From Candidatus Thorarchaeota archaeon (lineage in GTDB: Archaea; Asgardarchaeota; Thorarchaeia; Thorarchaeales; Thorarchaeaceae), in the NCBI GenBank assembly GCA_048884785.1, contig JBHLQM010000001.1, positions 1-64,000 of the forward strand: DNA of 64,000 nucleotides. Reading direction: 5' to 3'. Positions 11,299-64,000 of the stretch are shown piece after piece; within the stretch, counting starts at the first letter, position 1; every line of letters starts with the position of its first letter. Position numbers and translations under genes: made by a program. The notes under the pieces are model-generated. The model did no database searches, was not told the DNA's origin, and was given only the letters and a program-made list of their open reading frames with translations.

Positions 11299-13029
11299 CT
11301 AGAGTACAACCAAACCTAGAAACAACCAAAGCCAAATGACTCCAATTGTTAGTACCAATATTGCCAGCAAATCAATCATCAAACCAGTTGTTATCATTTC
11401 ACGAAGTTCCAGTTCTCCGGTGCTATAGGCGATTGTGGATGGTGGAGTACCAGTGGGAAGGGCGAAATCCATTGAAACCGCAATGGCGATGATCATGATG
11501 AGAAGGAGGGGGTCAATCCCTAAACCAGCTGCTAGAGGAATGGCAATTGGTATCAGAATAACTGCAGCTCCTGTATTCGATGCGAACATCGTGAGTAAAA
11601 CAGCGATTCCTCCAACAACCATAACGACCAGTATACTAGGTAGCATTCCGATTGCAGTCATTTGAAATGCCAGGAATGAAGACAATCCTGTTGATATCAT
11701 CGCATTCCCCAAGGCAATTCCACTGCCCAAGATAAGTAGCGCAGACCAGTTTATCTTAGACGAAACATCTTTTTCGTCAAGCAATCTGAGAGCTAAGAGA
11801 GCCAAACCGCCCATTACAGCTACTATTGAACTTGATACACCATGAAAACCCTCACTAAGCCACAAAGTAACAACTGATGCGAAGACTATAACTACCAGCT
11901 TTTGCTGAGTGTTCATAGGACCTAACTTCAGGTATTCTCGCGCGGATACCTCTTTTAAATCATCAATCTCCTCTATCTCCTTAGGCAACTTGAACCTGAA
12001 TATCAGCCATTGCCATATCAATGGTAGCAGAATAAGTACTACAGGTAGACCAAATGGTATCCATGACATAAATGTGAATTCCACCCCTAGGAAGGAGTTG
12101 ATATAGGTTGCAGCAAGCGGGTTGGGAGGTGAACCAACAAGCGTGCCGATGCCTCCGACGGTGGCAGAATAGGCTGCACCCAGCACAAGTGCTTTACCGT
12201 ATCTACTTCTGATTTCAGTGCTTCTAACACGAGAGACAATCGCAATAGCAATAGGAACCATAATCGCGGCTGAGGCTGTATTGCTGATCCACATTGAAAG
12301 AAATGCTGTGACTCCCATGACTGTTATTAACAGCCCTGATCCCGATCCCGTTGCATGTGAAAGAATCAGGAGGGCAAGGCGTTTGTCAAGTTCATACTTG
12401 CTCAGCGCCCTTCCAATAAGAAATCCTCCAAATATCAATGCAACTGCTGGATCAAAGAATGGTGCAAACGCAGCATTCGGGTCAGCTATCCCAGTTAGGA
12501 CGATTAGAACAGGAATCAGTATTGAGGTGGCAACAAGACTAATGCCTTCAGAGAACCATAGAATAGCAACTACTCCAAGGATCATGACTGCAGCTCTGGA
12601 ATTTACAAGCGGCCGGTATTCAATGAGGAATGTCTGACCACTCTGTTTTGTCGGTCGGAGTAATTGCTCAAATCCATTTGGCCCTGTGAGCAGGAGGGTT
12701 ATTTGGTCAGCCTGAAGTTCTAAACCTGTAGTAGTTATTTCGAAAATTAGCAAGCTGTTAGGAGAGAGAGGCATTGTTGATGTATAGGTAATTGTTAGAT
12801 TTGTCAAATTGCCATCTATTACTGCAGTAGTATCTTCTGTTGAACCACCCTCCGTAATAGTGATAGTGAATGAATAGTTACCACTTATCACAGGAGAATC
12901 AATGGTTAGCATTGCACTATATGAGCCTGCGGCCACATCGTTTGGTGCGAGATTATATAGCACGAAACCAGCAGTAACTGCAATTATCAGAACAAATACC
13001 GTCTTTCGCGAAATCTTGTATGGTTCCAT
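11299..13029 (-). CDS. DASS/SLC13 family sodium-coupled anion (dicarboxylate/sulfate) symporter with extra N-terminal domain
   Basis: Two SNT motifs (WISNTA, FASNTG), GTLVGSPPN, LPTGTPPS, many TM helices. Confidence 0.9.
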   Translation of the reverse strand: MEPYKISRKTVFVLIIAVTAGFVLYNLAPNDVAAGSYSAMLTIDSPVISGNYSFTITITEGGSTEDTTAVIDGNLTNLTITYTSTMPLSPNSLLIFEITTTGLELQADQITLLLTGPNGFEQLLRPTKQSGQTFLIEYRPLVNSRAAVMILGVVAILWFSEGISLVATSILIPVLIVLTGIADPNAAFAPFFDPAVALIFGGFLIGRALSKYELDKRLALLILSHATGSGSGLLITVMGVTAFLSMWISNTASAAIMVPIAIAIVSRVRSTEIRSRYGKALVLGAAYSATVGGIGTLVGSPPNPLAATYINSFLGVEFTFMSWIPFGLPVVLILLPLIWQWLIFRFKLPKEIEEIDDLKEVSAREYLKLGPMNTQQKLVVIVFASVVTLWLSEGFHGVSSSIVAVMGGLALLALRLLDEKDVSSKINWSALLILGSGIALGNAMISTGLSSFLAFQMTAIGMLPSILVVMVVGGIAVLLTMFASNTGAAVILIPIAIPLAAGLGIDPLLLIMIIAIAVSMDFALPTGTPPSTIAYSTGELELREMITTGLMIDLLAILVLTIGVIWLWLFLGLVVL

Positions 13030-13110
13030 GCCAATTCCTCGCTGTGTATCATGTGAAGTGGTTCTGATTTATTACAAGAGGAGCGACCGCAGCGGTGATT
13101 GGGGAATACT

Positions 13111-13473
13111 TCAATCTATAGGTCTTGAAACAGCAATCCTTTCAAATTCGGATGAAGCTGTAAACAATCCTTTGGTCCCAATTATTGTCTTAGTTTTCTC
13201 AATGTAGCCTTCAGACTGCAATTCGAGAAGCTGGGCAAGTTCCTCAAATTCGTCAAAAGGACCTTCGAAGACAGTAAATCCCGTAAATTCAGTCCCAAAT
13301 GCATTTCCTGCTTCTGCGATAATCTTCATGCCTTTGGGAAGGTCTGTTCGAGCTACAGCCCATTTCTTTATCCAATCCCGTTTGTCATCGTCCGTCATGG
13401 ATCGAAGTTTGTACATTACGATGTAGACAAATTCGAGCTTGGACTTCTCACCAATGATGGGACTAGCGGCCAT
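13111..13473 (-). CDS. hypothetical protein, possible dimeric alpha+beta barrel (ferredoxin-like) fold
   Basis: Strand-helix-strand-strand-helix-strand pattern by eye. Confidence 0.55.
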   Translation of the reverse strand: MAASPIIGEKSKLEFVYIVMYKLRSMTDDDKRDWIKKWAVARTDLPKGMKIIAEAGNAFGTEFTGFTVFEGPFDEFEELAQLLELQSEGYIEKTKTIIGTKGLFTASSEFERIAVSRPID

Positions 13474-13546
13474 GCATCAAATACACACAGGTGAGCTTAT
13501 AAAAGGGGCGCTAAAAACAGAGATGCATCCATAGGAGTAGAAATCT

Positions 13547-14776
13547 TTGGGACTTCGAGCGTCGGAACACAAATGGACTTTGATGATTCTGTACCTAGTT
13601 ACTTTCGTTATGAGAGCATCGTTCTACATGACAATAGCAGTAATTCAAAGTGAATCGTACATGGGAGGTGCAGTTGCAAGTTGGGAAGCAGCCGCTGTCT
13701 TGATTGTATACCCGATAGCTGAATTGTCAACAGTATCATTCTTTGGATCGTATAGCGATAAAGTGGGCAGGAAACCAATTCAAGTTGCCAGCCTATTTGT
13801 GACAGGGATTACAGCTCTCTTTTTCGCCCTTAACACCATAACGATTCTAATAGTGCTATTCGGAGTGATATTTGGTATTGCCATTGCTGCGAAGGTGACA
13901 ACCACCCTCTCTATCATTGCAGATTGCTCTCTTGAAGATAATCGTGCGAGACTAATGGGATACTACGACCTATGTACTCTAATGGGACTTGCAGGCGGGT
14001 ATGGAATGGGTATTCTATTGATTCAATTCCATTATGAAGCAATATTCATTCTTCTAGGCGCTTCTGTTGCATGTATTATTAGTGGATTCCTAGCATTTGC
14101 CGGCTTAAAAGAAACACGTCAAGTTGTTGCGGACCAAGTTAGTATGATGGCACTTCTCAAAAAAGTCGCAGGTGACAAGAGAATCCAAAAGCTTCTACCA
14201 GTTTATGTCCCGATAATTGCATTATATGGCCTAATTATAGCCAATGCCGAGCGACTACTAGAAGCGCATTTCTCCATCTCAGAATATGACCTATTAATCC
14301 TCTTTGGCATGCTTGGAGGATCTCTGGTTCTCGGTATAATCACAATGGGGCATTTGTCAGACCGCTATATGAAGAGAAGACCGTTTATTGTGACAGGACT
14401 AATTGCATTTGGCTTTCTGGCCTATCTCCTATTCGCCTTCGCTGACAACTTCACAGATCTATGGAGTATTTGGCCAGTTCTACCAATCCTAGGATTCACA
14501 GCGGGAGCGTTCCCACCAGCTGCACTCGCATACATGACTGACATATCTGACAAGAATGCGCGTGGCAGCACAATGGGTGTTTACAGTATCTTCTTTGGGT
14601 CCGGAATGGTGATCGGGCCTGCTGTCGGCTATTTCATGTATGAGGGGTACGGCTTGGTTGGAATGGCTGTCCTTGTTGCTATTCTGATAACCATCGCCTG
14701 CATTGGAACATATTTCATGCCAGAGATGCATGCAGGAAGACATCCTCCCAAAGAATCCCAAGAGAAACATGTGTAA
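13547..14776 (+). CDS. MFS transporter
   Basis: About 12 TM helices. Motif A in both halves (GSYSDKVGRK; GHLSDRYMKRR). Confidence 0.92.
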   Translation: MGLRASEHKWTLMILYLVTFVMRASFYMTIAVIQSESYMGGAVASWEAAAVLIVYPIAELSTVSFFGSYSDKVGRKPIQVASLFVTGITALFFALNTITILIVLFGVIFGIAIAAKVTTTLSIIADCSLEDNRARLMGYYDLCTLMGLAGGYGMGILLIQFHYEAIFILLGASVACIISGFLAFAGLKETRQVVADQVSMMALLKKVAGDKRIQKLLPVYVPIIALYGLIIANAERLLEAHFSISEYDLLILFGMLGGSLVLGIITMGHLSDRYMKRRPFIVTGLIAFGFLAYLLFAFADNFTDLWSIWPVLPILGFTAGAFPPAALAYMTDISDKNARGSTMGVYSIFFGSGMVIGPAVGYFMYEGYGLVGMAVLVAILITIACIGTYFMPEMHAGRHPPKESQEKHV

Positions 14777-57215: not shown

Positions 57216-58250
57216 CTATACCTGACTCGTTCGAACTGCTGATATTTTGCCGACAAGTCCGGCTACCCAGAGGAGTATAGGACCTGCAAGAAGGCCTCCC
57301 CAGACGAAGAGAGATATCACTCCAAGAACCAGTATTCTGATTGCGGAGGAGGTCTCTAGATTGCCTTCCGAATACCGAAATGCTTTGAAAGCAAAGTAGC
57401 CTGTAAGGACCGGCATGAGACCAAAGAGCATCGTGATTATAATTTGGAAATCAATTGGTACTTGAAGTGCAGCAAGAATCATCTGGAAGAAGATTGAGAT
57501 ACCACTGCCAATAATAAGAAATGAGGCAATTGATCCAAGCCACATCACTGGACTCTTCTTGTTAATTGTGACGAATCGCTTGTTTAGGATTAGTAGAATT
57601 CCGATTGCCACCGTGAGAACTATGGGAGTTAGAATCAGTAGGAGATTTTGTCCCTCCCAGAGGTGAATCGAAATCACGTTTATCGGCACCATTATCCATT
57701 CATCTAATGAGAATTCCTCTCTATAACCCAAGGTAATCGAATACCTACCTCCGGTATTTGGTTCATATACAACAAGATAGTATTCGCCACTCGCCTGAAG
57801 AGTCGTATCGACGTCCAGGACTACTAGGAATGCCGAGGGAGTGAAACCTTCGTAAACCGCAATGGCATCATCTGGGATGAAGAGCGATGCCTCCGAGCCA
57901 GAGGGGATTTCAACATATGATGGCACAGTATCGTTCATACCCAAATCAGGTCCAATCAAGACTACTGTGGGACGGAATGCTGAACTCAAGTACTCCATTG
58001 GTAGATTTAGTGTCATTCGAAGACGCATTCCGTCTGGTGCTTCAAATGAGAAATACTGAGGCTCCTCGTTTTCCTGCAGCTCTGAATAAATCACTAAGGA
58101 TTTCGTAGGATCCATTATTTCGATTGCTGTTTCAGGTGTACTTCCAGGTTCGCCTACAACTGGAACATGTGCTGAAACAAATCCCATAACAAGCAAAGAT
58201 GATATGACAGCTGCTAGGATTACTAAATAGCGGGAGTTCATAAAAACCAC
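57216..58250 (-). CDS. membrane protein with extracellular beta-sandwich (PPC-like) domain and several TM helices
   Basis: Signal peptide (VSA-HVP), GEYYLVVYEP..GGRYSITLG..E.F, C-terminal TM helices. Confidence 0.75.
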   Translation of the reverse strand: MVFMNSRYLVILAAVISSLLVMGFVSAHVPVVGEPGSTPETAIEIMDPTKSLVIYSELQENEEPQYFSFEAPDGMRLRMTLNLPMEYLSSAFRPTVVLIGPDLGMNDTVPSYVEIPSGSEASLFIPDDAIAVYEGFTPSAFLVVLDVDTTLQASGEYYLVVYEPNTGGRYSITLGYREEFSLDEWIMVPINVISIHLWEGQNLLLILTPIVLTVAIGILLILNKRFVTINKKSPVMWLGSIASFLIIGSGISIFFQMILAALQVPIDFQIIITMLFGLMPVLTGYFAFKAFRYSEGNLETSSAIRILVLGVISLFVWGGLLAGPILLWVAGLVGKISAVRTSQV

Positions 58251-58361: not shown

Positions 58362-59600
58362 TCACTCTCTTAGGTAGACATATGAGAAGAAGTCCTCGAT
58401 GATCTCGGCATGGTCTCCGGGTATAATCACGTGATGATTAGCCAATGATTCATCCAAGAAATACGACACATCTTCATCAAGATTTACACGAATCTGAGTT
58501 CTACAGCACTCTTCCTCCCTCAGATTCTCTTCAATGGTGCCACCTGAAACCCAATAATCGAGTAGCTCATCACCAAATACCTTGAATACAGTGACTCGCT
58601 CTTTTTCAAAGCTACCTCTGATGCCAACACTCTTTCCTGTTTCAAAATGCGTTGTTATCTCATAATTCTTGACCAGAGATGTAGCCACAGTACAATGGGC
58701 AAAGACAGCCGCATTATTCTCCAAATCCACATCAATCACATTGGCCATGAAGCTTGGACTTCCGGTCAGAATTCTCGCAAGAAGCATAGTGAAAGTCGTG
58801 GGAATATCTCCTTCGCAACCTGCAGTCTGTCCTGGTTGATTATTCACATGAGAGAGCGCAAGACATCCACTTACTTCTGTTTCAACCAGATAATCAAAGC
58901 ATTGCAGAGTAACGGCTCGTAGATGATGTTCTTGAATAAAATCATTGAGAACTGCCGCAACTCTTGATGCCTTCTCGATTTCTGTTGCAGGAATCTCTAT
59001 TTTGGAGGACCCTGCTTTGAACTCACTTTCTATAGAATTTGCAGTGGTTATTGTTGCTTCAGTTTTAAGGACAGAAAGGTCGAATTTCTCAAATGCTACG
59101 CCCCATCGATTGGTTGCCTTTTCAAAATCAATATCTGAAGCAATCAACCAGAAGGAGGGTTTCCCAATGAGGCCTATTCTGCTCTTTCTTAGCATTTCTA
59201 GATGCTCAGAGAATTCAACCCACCGTCTGAGCTTCATCACTAGCCCGTCTAAAGGAAGATGAATCAACGCCGCTGGAAATCCATTTTTATCCAAGTAGGC
59301 TCTGATTTCCATCGATGCAGGGAGAGAGTTATTGGATGGGTGACTCATGATTATAATGGGAGACCTTAGGTCATTCTCTCGGATGAAATCTGCAACTTTA
59401 TTCTCGGTACCACCAGTTCCTACAAAGATGATATTTTGTTGTGTAAGAAGATCAGCTTCTCGTTTTTTCGTCCCCATGAAATCATCTGGTTTAATTACTC
59501 TAGCTCCTGATTCGAGCAAATATCGTGAATGAGTATCTATGAGGCAGGGGCTGGCAATACTGGAGAAGAATGGAATAATATTGATGGGCATAATTTTCAA
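58362..59600 (-). CDS. L-fucose/L-arabinose isomerase-superfamily protein
   Basis: TLQCF, GCLALS, GCEGD, AHCT, CRTQ and ANHH metal-ligand motifs. Confidence 0.82.
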   Translation of the reverse strand: MKIMPINIIPFFSSIASPCLIDTHSRYLLESGARVIKPDDFMGTKKREADLLTQQNIIFVGTGGTENKVADFIRENDLRSPIIIMSHPSNNSLPASMEIRAYLDKNGFPAALIHLPLDGLVMKLRRWVEFSEHLEMLRKSRIGLIGKPSFWLIASDIDFEKATNRWGVAFEKFDLSVLKTEATITTANSIESEFKAGSSKIEIPATEIEKASRVAAVLNDFIQEHHLRAVTLQCFDYLVETEVSGCLALSHVNNQPGQTAGCEGDIPTTFTMLLARILTGSPSFMANVIDVDLENNAAVFAHCTVATSLVKNYEITTHFETGKSVGIRGSFEKERVTVFKVFGDELLDYWVSGGTIEENLREEECCRTQIRVNLDEDVSYFLDESLANHHVIIPGDHAEIIEDFFSYVYLRE

Positions 59601-59688
59601 GATTTACACTAACGGCTATATCAGTTTGTATAGATGAAGTAAGAGAAGATATAACGCGGAATGCAAATACTATGCTCTGGGTGTTCTA

Positions 59689-60021
59689 ATGGCTAAGGAA
59701 CAGATTCTAGCAGAGCTTCGAAAGCTGGCGGAAAAGTTTGAAGACGAAAAAATAAAGCGTCGTTTCAAGGATTACAACAAGACACTCCAATTTGCATTTC
59801 CAGACATTGATGCACATATGTTTATGAAAATCGGAGATTCCGAGCTGCTTGAGATTGGTGAAGGGAAAGTGGATGCTGAATTGAGTGTCACGATGGATTC
59901 CACTGTATTTCTGGGGATTATTAGCAAGACTGAGAGTCCTATGGCGGCCTACTCTAGTGGAAGACTGAAGACAAAGGGAGAAGTTCCAGATTTGCTGAAA
60001 CTGCAGAAGCTAATGCTCTAG
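59689..60021 (+). CDS. SCP2 sterol-carrier domain protein
   Basis: AELSVTMDS.VFLGI......PMAAYSSGRLKTKGE...LLKLQ signature. Confidence 0.85.
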   Translation: MAKEQILAELRKLAEKFEDEKIKRRFKDYNKTLQFAFPDIDAHMFMKIGDSELLEIGEGKVDAELSVTMDSTVFLGIISKTESPMAAYSSGRLKTKGEVPDLLKLQKLML

Positions 60022-60047
60022 TGCCTTCTACGCGAGAGGTAATCACA

Positions 60048-61046
60048 TTGAAAGCCCTCATCACTGCTCCTCTAACTAATGGGGCAATAACTGAACTTGA
60101 AGCGTTGGGACTTGACGTAGATTATCGAAGTTGGCTAGAAACAGGCAAGCTGTATCTTGGTGATTCACTTCTCCCCTTAATTAAGGAGAGTGGAGCCGAG
60201 ATTGTTCTTGTTGAAGGTGATGAGGTCAAAGAAGAGGTCATTGAAAACTCGAATCTAAAATTCATTGGATGTGTCAGAGGCGGACCCAATAACGTTTCAA
60301 TTCCCTCAGCTACAAAAAGGAGGATCCCGGTGGTTTCAGTGCCCGGAAGAAATACGCTCGCAGTTGCTGAGTTGACCATTGGATTGATACTTAGTCAAGC
60401 TAGAAGACTTGGAGCGGCAGAACGATTCATCTCTAATGATTTCTTTGTGGATGATTTCAGTGATTTTGCTAGGATGTACAAACACACAATGGGTTTTGAA
60501 CTCCACGATAAGATAGCTGGAATAATAGGACTGGGTGCAATAGGGTATGAAGTAGCAAAGAGACTCAAAGCTTTTGGGATGGAGATTCTTGCACATGATC
60601 CTTATGCAGACAATGAGAAAGCAGAGAGCCTGAAAGCTAAGCTCGTGAATCTCGATACCTTGCTTTCGGAATCAGATGTAGTTACGGTGCATTGTCCTGC
60701 CAATGATGAAACACGTGGAATGATAGGAAAACAACAATTCAGCAAGATGAAGAAAACAGCGATATTCATCAATACCGCGCGAGCTTCAATAACCGATGAA
60801 TACGCTCTATTAGATGCCCTTAAGGAAGGAAGAATTGCAGGTGCGGGGATTGACGTCTTTTCCATGGAACCGGTTGACTGTGATAACATCTTTTTGGGTC
60901 AGGAAAATGTAACAGTGACTCCCCATATTGGCGGAAATACCAAACAGACAATCGAGCGGCAATCACAATCTTTAGTGAATTCAGTTCGGATGTTCCTTAG
61001 AGGACAAGTACCGGAAAATATACTGAACCCAGAGGTTTTCGAATGA
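60048..61046 (+). CDS. D-isomer-specific 2-hydroxyacid dehydrogenase
   Basis: PGRNT.AVAE, GIIGLGAIG, INTAR, DVF..EP, TPHIGG. Start re-placed at TTG 60048 with GAGGT RBS. Confidence 0.92.
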   Translation: MKALITAPLTNGAITELEALGLDVDYRSWLETGKLYLGDSLLPLIKESGAEIVLVEGDEVKEEVIENSNLKFIGCVRGGPNNVSIPSATKRRIPVVSVPGRNTLAVAELTIGLILSQARRLGAAERFISNDFFVDDFSDFARMYKHTMGFELHDKIAGIIGLGAIGYEVAKRLKAFGMEILAHDPYADNEKAESLKAKLVNLDTLLSESDVVTVHCPANDETRGMIGKQQFSKMKKTAIFINTARASITDEYALLDALKEGRIAGAGIDVFSMEPVDCDNIFLGQENVTVTPHIGGNTKQTIERQSQSLVNSVRMFLRGQVPENILNPEVFE

Positions 61047-61058
61047 GAGGTGATATTG

Positions 61059-62558
61059 ATGGTTGTGGCAGCAATAGACGCAGGAACAACTGGAGTACGA
61101 TGTATGATTGTTGATAAAGCTGGCAAAACTATCGCCCTAAGTCGTCGATCATGGACCTATTCAACTCCTGAGTATTTCGAGGTAGCAAAGGAATTTGACC
61201 CAAAACACTTCTGGGACTTGGCTTGCACTGTTGTACGCGAGGCAATAGACATAGCTTCACACAAAGGTTCTATGGTGGAGGGAATCGCAACAACAAGTCA
61301 AAGACATGGTATGGTATTGCTGGATGAGTCTGGTATAGAACTTCATGGCGGGCCAAATATTGATGCAAGAGGATCTATGACACAATATGTCATTGAGGAT
61401 GAGATCGGAGAGGATTATCATGCGATTACTGGATGCTGGCCGCCAATGATGTTTGCTCCGACTAGAATCGCGTGGTTTGAAGAAGAAGAGCCTGAGATTT
61501 TTGAGAGCATAGCCCATGTCCTTCCGATCAGTGATTGGCTTACTTTTAGGCTCTCTGGTGAATATGTTACGGAGCCGGCATCTGCAAGCGCGACTGGATT
61601 TTATGACATCAAAAGAGATGAATGGAGTCAGAGAGTTCTAGATGCTCTGAATCTGGAAATGAGTATTCTCCCCAAGATATCCCAGTCCGGTCAAGTTGTT
61701 GGAGAAATCACAGAGCAGGCAAGCAAGGAATGTAATCTCCCAAAGGGAATTCCTGTTATTCAAGGAGGAACAGACACCCATTGCGCATTACTAGCCGCAC
61801 AAGTGGAACTGAGTGAAATTGGTATTATTGCAGGAAGCACTACTCCGGTAATGCTGGTTACAGAAGATAACATATGCGACGAGAAGATGCGTGTCTGGAC
61901 AGGAAGGCATGTTATTCCGACTCAATACACAATTGAAAGCAATGCCACTCTAACTGGGGCTTACCTGGAATGGATTGTCAATCTTCTCTGTGAAAGAGCG
62001 AAAAAGCCAGACCTTTGTAAAAAGAACACGTTTGGAAATCTTGAGAATCTGCTGAAGGATGTTCCGCCGGGCAGTGATGAAACTATGGTAGGGCTAGGAC
62101 CAAACATCATGGACAGTACAAAAATCACAAACATTCCTTTAGCAAGGATGATGTTTCCACAACCTGCACTTCCCTCTGTAAAGCCTCTTAACGCAAGCAC
62201 ACTGATACATGCTGTCTTGGAGAATATAGCATATTCAATACGAGGGAATTGTGAGCAGCTGAATGAAATGTCAGAAGTAAAGGGAATCAAAGCCATAGGG
62301 GGAATGACACGTTCTCATGTTTGGGTGCAGATGCTTGCCAATATTCTGGGGAAGGAGATAAGGACTCCAGTGCAATATGAGGGCAGTCTAGTGGGAGCGG
62401 CAATATGTGCATCAGTAGGCATCGGATGCTATTCTGATCTGGAAAAAGCCGGTGAATCTATGGTAAGGTGGAATGAAACATTCCTACCCGATGAACGCTC
62501 TAAAGACTACGAGTCTTATTATGCGAAATGGAAAGAAATGTGGTGCGAGGCGAGCTAA
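61059..62558 (+). CDS. FGGY-family carbohydrate kinase, LsrK-like
   Basis: DAGTTG.R, TSQRHG.VL...PNIDARG, GGTDT, AGST, LENIA, GG..RS..W.Q. GAGGTGA RBS. Confidence 0.9.
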   Translation: MVVAAIDAGTTGVRCMIVDKAGKTIALSRRSWTYSTPEYFEVAKEFDPKHFWDLACTVVREAIDIASHKGSMVEGIATTSQRHGMVLLDESGIELHGGPNIDARGSMTQYVIEDEIGEDYHAITGCWPPMMFAPTRIAWFEEEEPEIFESIAHVLPISDWLTFRLSGEYVTEPASASATGFYDIKRDEWSQRVLDALNLEMSILPKISQSGQVVGEITEQASKECNLPKGIPVIQGGTDTHCALLAAQVELSEIGIIAGSTTPVMLVTEDNICDEKMRVWTGRHVIPTQYTIESNATLTGAYLEWIVNLLCERAKKPDLCKKNTFGNLENLLKDVPPGSDETMVGLGPNIMDSTKITNIPLARMMFPQPALPSVKPLNASTLIHAVLENIAYSIRGNCEQLNEMSEVKGIKAIGGMTRSHVWVQMLANILGKEIRTPVQYEGSLVGAAICASVGIGCYSDLEKAGESMVRWNETFLPDERSKDYESYYAKWKEMWCEAS

Positions 62559-63194
62559 ATGTACGAAGAGGAGAAAACAGCTCTACTAGAAGTATGTAAA
62601 GATATGCTCAAACTTGGCATGGTTATTGGTTCCTCGGGCAATGCTAGCATTAGGGTTGATGACCACGTCGTCATCACTCCAAGTTCTGTGAAGTATATTA
62701 CAATGGAACCTGATGAGATGGTAGTCCTTAGTATGACTGGCGATACAATCGAAGGAGATAGAAATCCCAGCATTGAGAAATTCATGCATCTAGGAGTCTA
62801 TAACAATAGGGAGGATGCAAAGGCTATCGTACACTCACACAGTATTTACGCTTCATCACTAGCTGTTCTGAGAAAACCACTTCCACCGATCATTGATGAA
62901 GTGGTTCCAGCTCTTGGCGGTGAAATACGTGTAGCTGAATACGCAATGCCGGGTACTAAAGACCTAGCATCCAATGTTGTGCAAGCCTTGGAGGAAAGAA
63001 GTGCTGTCTTGTTGGCAAATCATGGTGCTTTAAGTATTGGAAAAGACATCCATGAGGCGCTTCACAAAATGGTTCTCTTTGAAAGAAGCTGTCAAATCTT
63101 TCTCATGGCTTTGCAGGCAGGAACCCCCATTGAACTGCCAGAGGATGTTGTTGAAGATGAGATGGATATTTGGGATATGATGAGATCCTACTGA
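62559..63194 (+). CDS. class II aldolase (L-fuculose-1-phosphate aldolase-like)
   Basis: GSSGNAS, ITPS, PSIE, HSHS and LANHG Zn-binding motifs. Confidence 0.9.
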   Translation: MYEEEKTALLEVCKDMLKLGMVIGSSGNASIRVDDHVVITPSSVKYITMEPDEMVVLSMTGDTIEGDRNPSIEKFMHLGVYNNREDAKAIVHSHSIYASSLAVLRKPLPPIIDEVVPALGGEIRVAEYAMPGTKDLASNVVQALEERSAVLLANHGALSIGKDIHEALHKMVLFERSCQIFLMALQAGTPIELPEDVVEDEMDIWDMMRSY

Positions 63195-63196
63195 AT

Positions 63197-63535
63197 CTAT
63201 GACTTCATTAAACTCTGGAGCTTCATCAGGTCCCTTGGAGATCCATCAGCTTTTAGCTTCCCACCCATGAAAGACCGCACTGCAGATAGGGATCCATCGA
63301 GTATACCTAGGATTGTTTTAGAATCAGTTACAATCTTCATGTCCGCCTTTTCAGGAGCTCCCTCTCTGACAGTTGCCTTTCCGCCGCTGAATTCGATTGT
63401 CAAATCGAGGCTCAAATCCTGATATGTCATCAGCATCGTCTTTTCAAAATCCTGAAACCTCTTCTGCATCTTGGGTTCCTCAACTCTGCTGACCATACGT
63501 TGGATAGCTTGCATAAGCTCCTCTTTGTCTGTAAT
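63197..63535 (-). CDS. SCP2 sterol-carrier domain protein, second copy
   Basis: ADMKIVTDSKTILGILDG.LSAVRSFMGGKLKADG...DLMKLQ; paralogous to 59689-60021. Start is ATG 63514 or ATT 63535. Confidence 0.85.
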   Translation of the reverse strand: MTDKEELMQAIQRMVSRVEEPKMQKRFQDFEKTMLMTYQDLSLDLTIEFSGGKATVREGAPEKADMKIVTDSKTILGILDGSLSAVRSFMGGKLKADGSPRDLMKLQSLMKS

Positions 63536-63652
63536 GATATTAGCCTCCTATGGGATGTTCTATTTCATCTACATAATGAAAAATCTGCCTAGTCAAAATG
63601 ACTATGTAAGAAATCATCTAAATCCTCCAAAAAATGAAAGGAGGATTTAGTT

Positions 63653-63928
63653 TTACACAACCGCTGATTCTGAACTCTTATTCATGCTTTCTATAACTTC
63701 AAGGATTTCAGGAGATACCTTGCCTCTATAGGCCTGGAGGATGCTGTGAGGCACACCCCGTTTATTCAGCTCGCGTTCGAGCCGTTTTATGCATACTGTA
63801 ACGTTTGCAAGGGCATTCTTGAGAGTCACTAGACTCACTCTGAGATCGTCATCAGAACATGTTGCCATGTTGTAAGGAACACAGCACTTGAAGGCCAATT
63901 TTCGGCCAAATTGCTCTTTCTCATTCAA
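63653..63928 (-). CDS. hypothetical small coiled-coil protein
   Basis: 91-aa ORF with a leucine-zipper-like stretch. Confidence 0.5.
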   Translation of the reverse strand: MNEKEQFGRKLAFKCCVPYNMATCSDDDLRVSLVTLKNALANVTVCIKRLERELNKRGVPHSILQAYRGKVSPEILEVIESMNKSSESAVV

Positions 63929-64000
63929 TCTTGATGCGCCTCTGGGTTCTTCGAGCCCGTGTATGATATCAGCAAATTATGTAATTAGCCTATTCTTTCA

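Follow-up and report, generated by a model that had tools for sequence, protein, structure and literature searches.

Within the first 64,000 nucleotides of contig JBHLQM010000001.1 from a Thorarchaeota metagenome-assembled genome (GCA_048884785.1), the whole stretch of DNA analysed here and referred to as the window, positions 58362-63535 hold a compact block of six genes encoding an isomerase-like protein, two SCP2 proteins (SCP2-A and SCP2-B), a D-2-hydroxyacid dehydrogenase, an FGGY kinase and a class II aldolase. Five of them, SCP2-A through SCP2-B, make up a rearranged version of a probably catabolic module that Asgard archaea share with five or more bacterial phyla, in which the same four types of component are often fused in single proteins. 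In the reading that we prefer, and to which we assign a probability of roughly 0.5, this module clips dihydroxyacetone phosphate (DHAP) off a partly hydrophobic polyol or ketol molecule, the hydrophobic part of which would be held by SCP2. No published description of the module was found in the literature.

Four genes of the module run on the plus strand: SCP2-A, its first gene (59689-60021; 110 amino acids), a PGDH-like D-2-hydroxyacid dehydrogenase of the 2-Hacid_dh family (60021-61046; 341 amino acids), an LsrK-like FGGY kinase (61050-62558; 502 amino acids) and a FucA-type class II zinc aldolase (62559-63194; 211 amino acids). They are spaced by -1, 3 and 0 nucleotides, the first value reflecting a 1-nucleotide overlap of the earliest possible dehydrogenase start with the SCP2-A stop. 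SCP2-B (63197-63514; 105 amino acids) lies on the minus strand and converges on the aldolase, so that the two stop codons are 2 nucleotides apart. The gene order, gaps and strands given in a preliminary description of this DNA were reproduced from the open reading frames (ORFs), and Pfam confirms all families but that of the isomerase: PF02036 for SCP2-A (33.7 bits) and SCP2-B (45.3 bits), both above the gathering cut-off of 21.3, PF02826 (202.3 bits) and PF00389 (66.9 bits) for the dehydrogenase, PF00370 (155.8 bits) and PF02782 (68.7 bits) for the kinase, whose two domains both exceed their cut-offs and make it a member of the FGGY family, and PF00596 (Aldolase_II; 173 bits) for the aldolase. 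A 10.2-kb contig from another sample covers 59421-64000, and contigs of a ~95-98% identical strain from a different study bridge the junctions of the isomerase-like gene with SCP2-A (59525-59885) and of the aldolase gene with SCP2-B (62908-63236); because contigs of other samples span both junctions, the layout is no assembly artefact.

Kinase orthologues are present in 22 other Thor-family genomes at 55-61% identity and in other Asgard families at 30-41%. Word-based searches of protein sequences, with SCP2-A or the kinase as query, yielded nothing beyond close relatives in Thorarchaeota. The dehydrogenase, kinase and aldolase genes are contiguous in 19 Thor loci. An SCP2-A orthologue (62-76% identity) is found upstream of the dehydrogenase in all 18 Thor loci that could be judged, either directly upstream or ~3.2 kb upstream beyond a divergent ABC-2 transporter operon. 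In 10 of the 19, an SCP2-B orthologue (47-63% identity) follows on the opposite strand, after the aldolase and a tungsten aldehyde:ferredoxin oxidoreductase (AOR). Among the non-Thor families, SCP2 is found within the cluster in 10 of 18 loci, which represent five families (six counting Thor); in the family designated f9, the order is kinase, SCP2 and a fused dehydrogenase-aldolase of ~560 amino acids. Fused proteins of this type are encoded at L112:5876-7570 and L114:5831-7516, both on the minus strand. The AOR gene, present in 25 of 40 Asgard loci and mostly placed straight after the aldolase, encodes an enzyme of the broad-specificity P. furiosus AOR type (397 bits) and is followed in relatives by genes for an AEC-family membrane transporter and then a small protein. 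The dehydrogenase is a constant part of the core and AOR is its usual fifth gene, two points that the preliminary description did not contain.

When the kinase was used as a query against 1.8 billion representative proteins and the domains of its long relatives were assigned with Pfam, single bacterial proteins of 1318-1481 amino acids (1250-1480 across the fusions, typically ~1300) were found that consist of FGGY, 2-Hacid_dh, SCP2 and Aldolase_II, in that order. Partial fusions join FGGY to the dehydrogenase, to the aldolase, or to the dehydrogenase and SCP2, and the public names of the fusions are generic, such as 'NAD(P)-dependent oxidoreductase' or 'FGGY family carbohydrate kinase'. When genomes representative of species were scanned, 80 loci were obtained, 74 of them with an ORF of the fusion family, and in 51 of these 74 bacterial loci the four-part fusion is complete and in frame, three having two SCP2 domains. 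SCP2 always stands between the dehydrogenase and the aldolase in these fusions. Apparent longer fusions of 1580-1737 amino acids, considered as possible P450 fusions, were rejected as artefacts of ORF starts in GC-rich DNA. The hosts include Anaerolineae and other Chloroflexota, Myxococcota, Actinomycetota, Spirochaetales, Binatia, Bacillota and others, with Bellilinea caldifistulae and Mycobacterium persicum as cultured carriers. A fucA-serA2-xylB trio presumed to exist in M. tuberculosis (Rv0727c-Rv0729) is taken here as a lead only. A FastTree tree of the kinases, read without support values and therefore only roughly, separates a clade of Asgard cluster kinases from a clade of fused bacterial kinases, which argues against recent transfer.

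The link between SCP2 and the kinase, dehydrogenase and aldolase that had been proposed from the window thus recurs, both as Asgard synteny and as bacterial four-part fusions, and SCP2 is very probably a functional part of the module. That the SCP2 genes are neighbours with no functional tie to the enzymes seems to us extremely improbable: the genome does hold eight SCP2 genes scattered beside various other genes, and eight Asgard clusters have no detectable SCP2, but SCP2 is kept in the cluster across six Asgard families, and no fewer than 51 bacterial loci have it fused in frame, with the dehydrogenase on one side and the aldolase on the other.

SCP2-A and SCP2-B are paralogues (28% identity, E = 3e-15). 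The predicted structure of SCP2-A (pLDDT 84.9) has the canonical SCP2 alpha/beta fold, matching SCP2 structures with a probability of 1.00 and TM-scores of 0.62-0.73, with the C-terminal domain of an alkylsulfatase, AF1534, Thermus SCP2, UbiJ and the SCP-2L domain of MFE-2 as its top fold matches. In peroxisomal MFE-2, in the alkylsulfatases SdsA1 and Pisa1, and in UbiJ, a catalytic part has an SCP2 module joined to it or acting alongside it, and this module binds the substrate by its hydrophobic tail and presents it for catalysis; because of this role, and because of the genes found around the bacterial fusions (see below), SCP2 may by analogy hold a hydrophobic tail in the present module as well. 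None of these enzymes has a kinase or an aldolase as partner, and the archaeal SCP2 proteins of the module are free-standing, fusion being seen only in bacteria. The SCP2 domains of the bacterial fusions have a median best score of 41.8 bits to the Asgard cluster SCP2s and of 31.4 bits to the other SCP2 paralogues of this genome, to which the Asgard cluster SCP2s themselves score 52 bits. Six further stand-alone SCP2 genes lie on contigs C110, C28, C12, C5, C22 and C40 (loci L001-L006), several of them adjoining oxidoreductase genes, in sets such as SDR, M24 peptidase, MFS transporter and GFO/IDH/MocA enzyme, iron-type alcohol dehydrogenase (Fe-ADH) and nitronate monooxygenase, or zinc-type alcohol dehydrogenase (Zn-ADH) and thiamine diphosphate (ThDP) enzyme, an arrangement that may point to a more general association between SCP2 and dehydrogenases in this lineage. 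A preprint on lipid transfer in Asgard archaea says no more on this protein than that a Lokiarchaeon has an SCP-2 homologue.

Phosphorylation by a kinase followed by aldolase cleavage to DHAP is textbook sugar chemistry, and the three enzymes of the module probably follow this chemistry, yielding DHAP and an aldehyde. To our knowledge, no DHAP-yielding kinase/aldolase route has a lipid-carrier domain as a fixed part. In the proposed model, the LsrK-like kinase would phosphorylate the terminal hydroxymethyl group (CH2OH) of a polyol or ketol tail, the PGDH-like dehydrogenase would make or adjust the adjacent carbonyl by oxidation of a CHOH group to give a 'ketose-1-phosphate' end, and the FucA-type zinc aldolase would split this end into DHAP and an aldehyde. 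AOR, which is the next gene in relatives and is encoded on contig C21 in this genome, would then oxidize the aldehyde to an acid with reduction of ferredoxin, and the acid may be exported or activated with CoA. The SCP2 proteins would be integral to the process, and most likely hold a hydrophobic part of either the substrate or the aldehyde that is released. Which of kinase and dehydrogenase acts first is proposed only provisionally. The domain order kinase-dehydrogenase-SCP2-aldolase of the fusions matches the proposed reaction sequence, a correspondence that is suggestive only. A kinase-then-dehydrogenase order is also known from erythritol catabolism in Brucella, where the FGGY kinase EryA acts first on the polyol and the dehydrogenase EryB then oxidizes the polyol phosphate; the Brucella route differs in that its dehydrogenase belongs to another family, isomerases instead of an aldolase complete it, and SCP2 is absent. 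Alternatively, the dehydrogenase of the module may act on a 2-hydroxy acid formed by AOR.

The nearest characterized relative of the kinase is LsrK, both among NCBIfam models (NF008187, 293.9 bits, under the cut-off of 528; FucK reaches 114 bits and RhaB 62 bits) and in the PDB (5ya0, 219 bits; the next match has 122 bits). This raises the possibility of a route related to the processing of autoinducer-2 (AI-2), in which the kinase would phosphorylate 4,5-dihydroxy-2,3-pentanedione (DPD) or a similar diketone, the dehydrogenase would convert the product to a 5-deoxypentulose-1-phosphate by reducing one of the keto groups, the aldolase would release DHAP and acetaldehyde, and AOR would oxidize the acetaldehyde. 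Besides the position of LsrK as by far the nearest characterized kinase, an LsrR-like regulator of the SorC family, encoded immediately before the fusion at three loci of Anaerolineae, and the resemblance of an alpha-diketone to a 2-oxo acid speak for such a route. We nevertheless regard it as very unlikely, given that the kinase scores far under the LsrK family cut-off, that no LsrF-, LsrG- or LsrACDB-like genes are found among the Pfam-scanned Asgard and bacterial neighbours, and that SCP2 and the lipid-type neighbours are left unexplained. The lsr pathway and the proposed route both end in DHAP, but cleavage in the present module would be carried out by a class II aldolase and not by the thiolase LsrF.

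For the dehydrogenase, the best NCBIfam model is PGDH (TIGR01327; 254.8 bits, with the equivalog cut-off of 454 not reached) and the nearest solved structure is the short archaeal PGDH 1wwk of P. horikoshii (206 bits). Read from the sequence, it has kept its GxGxxG motif as well as the Arg, Glu and His of the catalytic set ('NTARA', 'FSMEP' and 'TPHIGG'). Its proposed step is modelled on PGDH, which oxidizes next to a phosphate-bearing carbon.

The aldolase is, as judged from its sequence, a member of the class II aldolase family that falls below the FucA equivalog cut-offs (TIGR01086, 123.2 bits against 400.25; NF005302, 162.2 bits against 264). Its nearest solved structures are FucA (4c24, 134 bits) and 6btd (119 bits), an entry that is labelled just 'fuculose phosphate aldolase' and that we take to be DrdA of B. 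thuringiensis. The active-site motifs are intact, with 'GNAS', 'PSIEKFMH', 'VHSHS' and 'ANHGA' corresponding to the Asn/Ser phosphate site, the catalytic Glu and the three zinc-ligand His residues, and these positions are invariant in 13 bacterial fusions. A conserved AOR beside the aldolase argues for an aldehyde as product and therefore favours a true aldolase over an epimerase or a decarboxylase. This bears on a tetronate-type route for acid sugars, in which the dehydrogenase would oxidize an aldonic acid, the kinase would phosphorylate the product and the protein of class II aldolase fold would act as an OtnC-like decarboxylase that releases DHAP and CO2. Such a route would agree with the action of the dehydrogenase family on 2-hydroxy acids and with a partial match of the aldolase to the OtnC model (NF043034; 120.6 bits), and it has a chemical precedent in PMC12994016 and in the 2016 DUF1537 paper cited there. 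The OtnC score, however, is under the cut-off of 250 and below the 162-167 bits obtained with FucA-type models, and a decarboxylase route yields no aldehyde and would therefore leave the conserved AOR without a role. The known pathway (LtnD/DenD-OtnI-OtnK-OtnC and its Ltn3D variant) likewise combines a dehydrogenase, a kinase and an enzyme of class II aldolase fold to reach DHAP, but does so with DUF1537 kinases and SDR or beta-hydroxyacid dehydrogenases and not with an FGGY kinase and a 2-Hacid_dh enzyme, ends in a decarboxylation, and includes neither AOR nor SCP2 (PMC12994016). On balance, we consider a tetronate-type function highly improbable.

Two further systems resemble the proposed cleavage. 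In the DHAP shunt (DrdK-DrdI-DrdA or MtnK-MtnA-Ald2), a class II aldolase cuts a C5 sugar that bears a non-sugar group at C5 into DHAP and a substituted acetaldehyde; its kinase is of the MtnK type and its isomerase of the MtnA type, and it has no dehydrogenase and no SCP2. The L-fucose and L-rhamnose routes of E. coli (FucI-FucK-FucA and RhaA-RhaB-RhaD, with FucO/AldA) share with the module an FGGY kinase and a class II zinc aldolase, of which the present one is nearest to FucA, as well as the conversion of a ketose-1-phosphate into DHAP and an aldehyde that is then oxidized or reduced. The module differs from them in that its kinase is LsrK-like and not FucK- or RhaB-like, its core includes a PGDH-like dehydrogenase and SCP2, AOR takes the place of AldA/FucO, and an isomerase is not conserved with it. 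Because the equivalog cut-offs are missed, the isomerase is unlinked, and the dehydrogenase and SCP2 have no counterpart in these systems, we place the module outside the fucose/rhamnose and DHAP-shunt routes. The genes reported in a preprint on riboflavin degradation are not those of the module (they include a class I aldolase and a RibF-like kinase) and offer a chemical parallel only.

Clues to the substrate come from the genes around the bacterial fusions, which favour a molecule with a hydrophobic tail. In Chloroflexota, a co-directional row consists of genes for a GntR regulator, AOR, a class III aminotransferase, an M28 peptidase, an NAD-dependent epimerase/reductase and the fusion, to which a BKACE enzyme and an SDR are sometimes added; 10 bacterial loci have AOR no more than 10 kb from the fusion. 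The row of Myxococcota and allies reads acyl-CoA ligase, TetR, P450, fusion, Rieske oxygenase and acyl-CoA ligase, and its surroundings include pairs of acyl-CoA dehydrogenases, an enoyl-CoA hydratase and a thiolase-like protein accompanied by DUF35. The P450 gene ends -3 to 15 nucleotides before the start of the fusion in 7 loci, and its product is nearest to CYP125 by a narrow margin (212 bits against ~200 for other P450s); directly downstream of the fusion, 3 loci encode a Rieske oxygenase that is clearly KshA-like (193 bits, the next match having 73). In Asgard archaea, Thor locus L082 has two FadD-like acyl-CoA ligase genes immediately before SCP2-A. The amphipathic substrate suggested in the preliminary description is made plausible by these lipid- and steroid-type fusion neighbours and by the acyl-CoA ligases at one Thor cluster, and we give a substrate with a hydrophobic tail even or marginally better odds.

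Several observations weigh against this assignment. The lipid-type neighbours occur in only 24 of the 74 bacterial loci, and the SorC-type regulator at the three Anaerolineae loci, accompanied by an MFS transporter in Bellilinea, is of a kind associated with sugar phosphates and stands where other loci have lipid genes. LsrK, the closest characterized relative of the kinase, acts on a small, water-soluble diketone, and the carboxylate-binding Arg of the dehydrogenase family is intact, which suits a 2-hydroxy acid better than a polyol. Several Asgard clusters have NiFe-hydrogenase or Nfn-like redox genes beside them, which points to fermentation at high flux. Orthology between the SCP2 parts of archaea and those of bacteria is not clear, and no SCP2 was detected in 8 of the 18 non-Thor Asgard clusters (families f7, f8, f13 and f19), so that the enzymes can work without a linked SCP2.

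Some of the same observations would suit a route for small sugars (a 6-deoxyhexose, 5-deoxypentose, pentulose or small polyol), in which the kinase would form a ketose-1-phosphate, the aldolase would release DHAP and lactaldehyde, glycolaldehyde or acetaldehyde, AOR would give a 2-hydroxy acid and the dehydrogenase a 2-oxo acid, with SCP2 serving as a scaffold or as a handler of the reactive aldehyde. The aldolase is closest to FucA, Ru1P-aldolase and DrdA-type enzymes; FucA-type sugar cleavage produces a 2-hydroxyaldehyde, the acid of which belongs to the natural substrate class of the dehydrogenase family, in line with the intact Arg; genes for redox recycling (NiFe hydrogenase, Nfn-like) adjoin several Asgard clusters; the SorC regulator and MFS transporter stand beside the Bellilinea fusion; and aminotransferase genes recur nearby. 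This route would, however, leave unaccounted for the presence of SCP2 between dehydrogenase and aldolase in dozens of bacterial lineages as well as the P450, KshA-like, acyl-CoA ligase and beta-oxidation neighbours, and neither a sugar ABC or PTS transporter nor a conserved isomerase is found among the neighbours of the module. In addition, the NAD-linked oxidation of a 2-hydroxy acid is energetically uphill. We therefore view a small-sugar route as possible but rather unlikely.

Among the Asgard neighbours, genes for group-3-type NiFe hydrogenase or Nfn/SudAB-like ferredoxin:NADP oxidoreductase are located at L094:2399-6458, L100:13038-17058 and L102:5251-6087 and 12206-13636. Genes upstream of some clusters that had been considered as a sugar ABC transporter were rejected as such, being NiFe-hydrogenase and Nfn-like redox genes. 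M20 peptidase genes recur near the module, as do aminotransferase genes, and both weigh against a lipid substrate. A class I/II aminotransferase is encoded just past the window (C1:64141-65280, minus strand), and two loci of Freyarchaeia type (L098 and L099) also have relatives of it in the vicinity of the module. The block itself is flanked by open frames on the minus strand at 57216-58250 (344 amino acids) and 63653-63928 (91 amino acids), neither of which has a Pfam family.

The sixth gene of the block (58362-59600, minus strand; 412 amino acids) diverges from SCP2-A, from which it is separated by an 88-nucleotide gap. Its product has no Pfam match and no sequence relative in the PDB, and its sole NCBIfam match is a partial one to the sulfoquinovose isomerase SftI (70 bits against a cut-off of 700). 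The label 'fucose/arabinose-isomerase-like' was borne out by the fold of a confident AlphaFold model (pLDDT 94.5), which has TM-scores of 0.74-0.76 to L-arabinose isomerases (Foldseek E = 3e-21 to AraA) and of 0.70-0.72 to L-fucose isomerases. Five cysteines (C234, C246, C262, C303 and C366) are invariant in this isomerase-fold family, which also has Glu, Asp and His residues as candidates for a metal site. The gene has a match in 81 of 201 sampled Asgard genomes. In 40 Asgard loci, the neighbours of its orthologues are varied and mostly of the housekeeping type (phosphoribosyltransferase, TPR protein, Met-tRNA ligase, PhzF, TldD/PmbA and amino-acid kinase), and the kinase/dehydrogenase/aldolase set is found in none; conversely, the isomerase is found in none of 38 loci around kinase orthologues. 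Families f7, f13 and f19 hold the kinase cluster yet often have no isomerase at all. The only other place among the 40 loci where the isomerase gene adjoins an SCP2-A orthologue is a genome of the same genus (G164), and there the enzymes are missing; apart from it, a single locus has a homologue of the aldolase at a distance of 2 kb.

Because the linkage is confined to this genus, the fucose-style logic of an isomerase that feeds the kinase, which the preliminary description had adopted, is unsupported, and the isomerase gene is probably a chance neighbour and not part of the module. Of the original interpretation as a whole, the linkage of SCP2 with the enzymes stands, through synteny and fusions, and the isomerase step falls for want of conserved linkage. 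In G164 (locus L038 on C58 and locus L096 on C12), the isomerase and SCP2-A pair is kept, the dehydrogenase and aldolase were not found alongside, and all that is left of the kinase is a piece interrupted by a TGA, on a contig of 3 kb; this state may reflect either a decaying module or a poor assembly.

The genes that usually flank the module are found elsewhere in this genome. On contig C21 (39831-44987), a divergent ABC-2 transporter, an AOR that is 56% identical to the cluster AOR of relatives, an AEC transporter and the small conserved protein are encoded together. This array looks like the usual flanks with the four-gene core excised, that is, an 'empty site', and the window therefore would show a translocated core set beside the isomerase-like gene. 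The absence of a transporter or regulator from the block, as first claimed, holds within the window; the ABC-2 and AEC transporters of C21, usual cluster flanks that here lie on a contig separate from the module, were missing from the first interpretation. By tblastn, the genome has at least 12 AOR-family paralogues.

Returning to the reading that we prefer, in which DHAP is clipped off a molecule with a hydrophobic part, candidate substrates can be named only by speculation and include bacteriohopanepolyols, aromatic cofactors that bear a ribityl chain, and long-chain amino- or polyols. A more specific and rather improbable proposal is that the module serves, independently of oxygen, to harvest a polyol tail that derives from ribose and is borne by a bulky lipid or a cofactor, with a bacteriohopanepolyol as the leading candidate and a ribityl chain as the second. 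For bacteriohopanetetrol, phosphorylation would take place at C35, oxidation at C34 and aldol cleavage between C32 and C33, giving DHAP and a C32 hopanoid aldehyde that AOR would convert to C32 hopanoic acid. If true, this would be the first enzymatic route for the breakdown of the hopanoid side chain, and Asgard archaea and Chloroflexota in sediments would feed on the head groups of bacterial membrane lipids. What the module acts on can be tested directly in carriers that are in culture, namely Bellilinea caldifistulae and Mycobacterium persicum. More generally, if SCP2 presents a greasy substrate to the enzymes, the module would represent a new way for anaerobes to strip a usable C3 unit from amphipathic molecules, with a bearing on the degradation of membrane lipids in sediments and on the diet of Asgard archaea.

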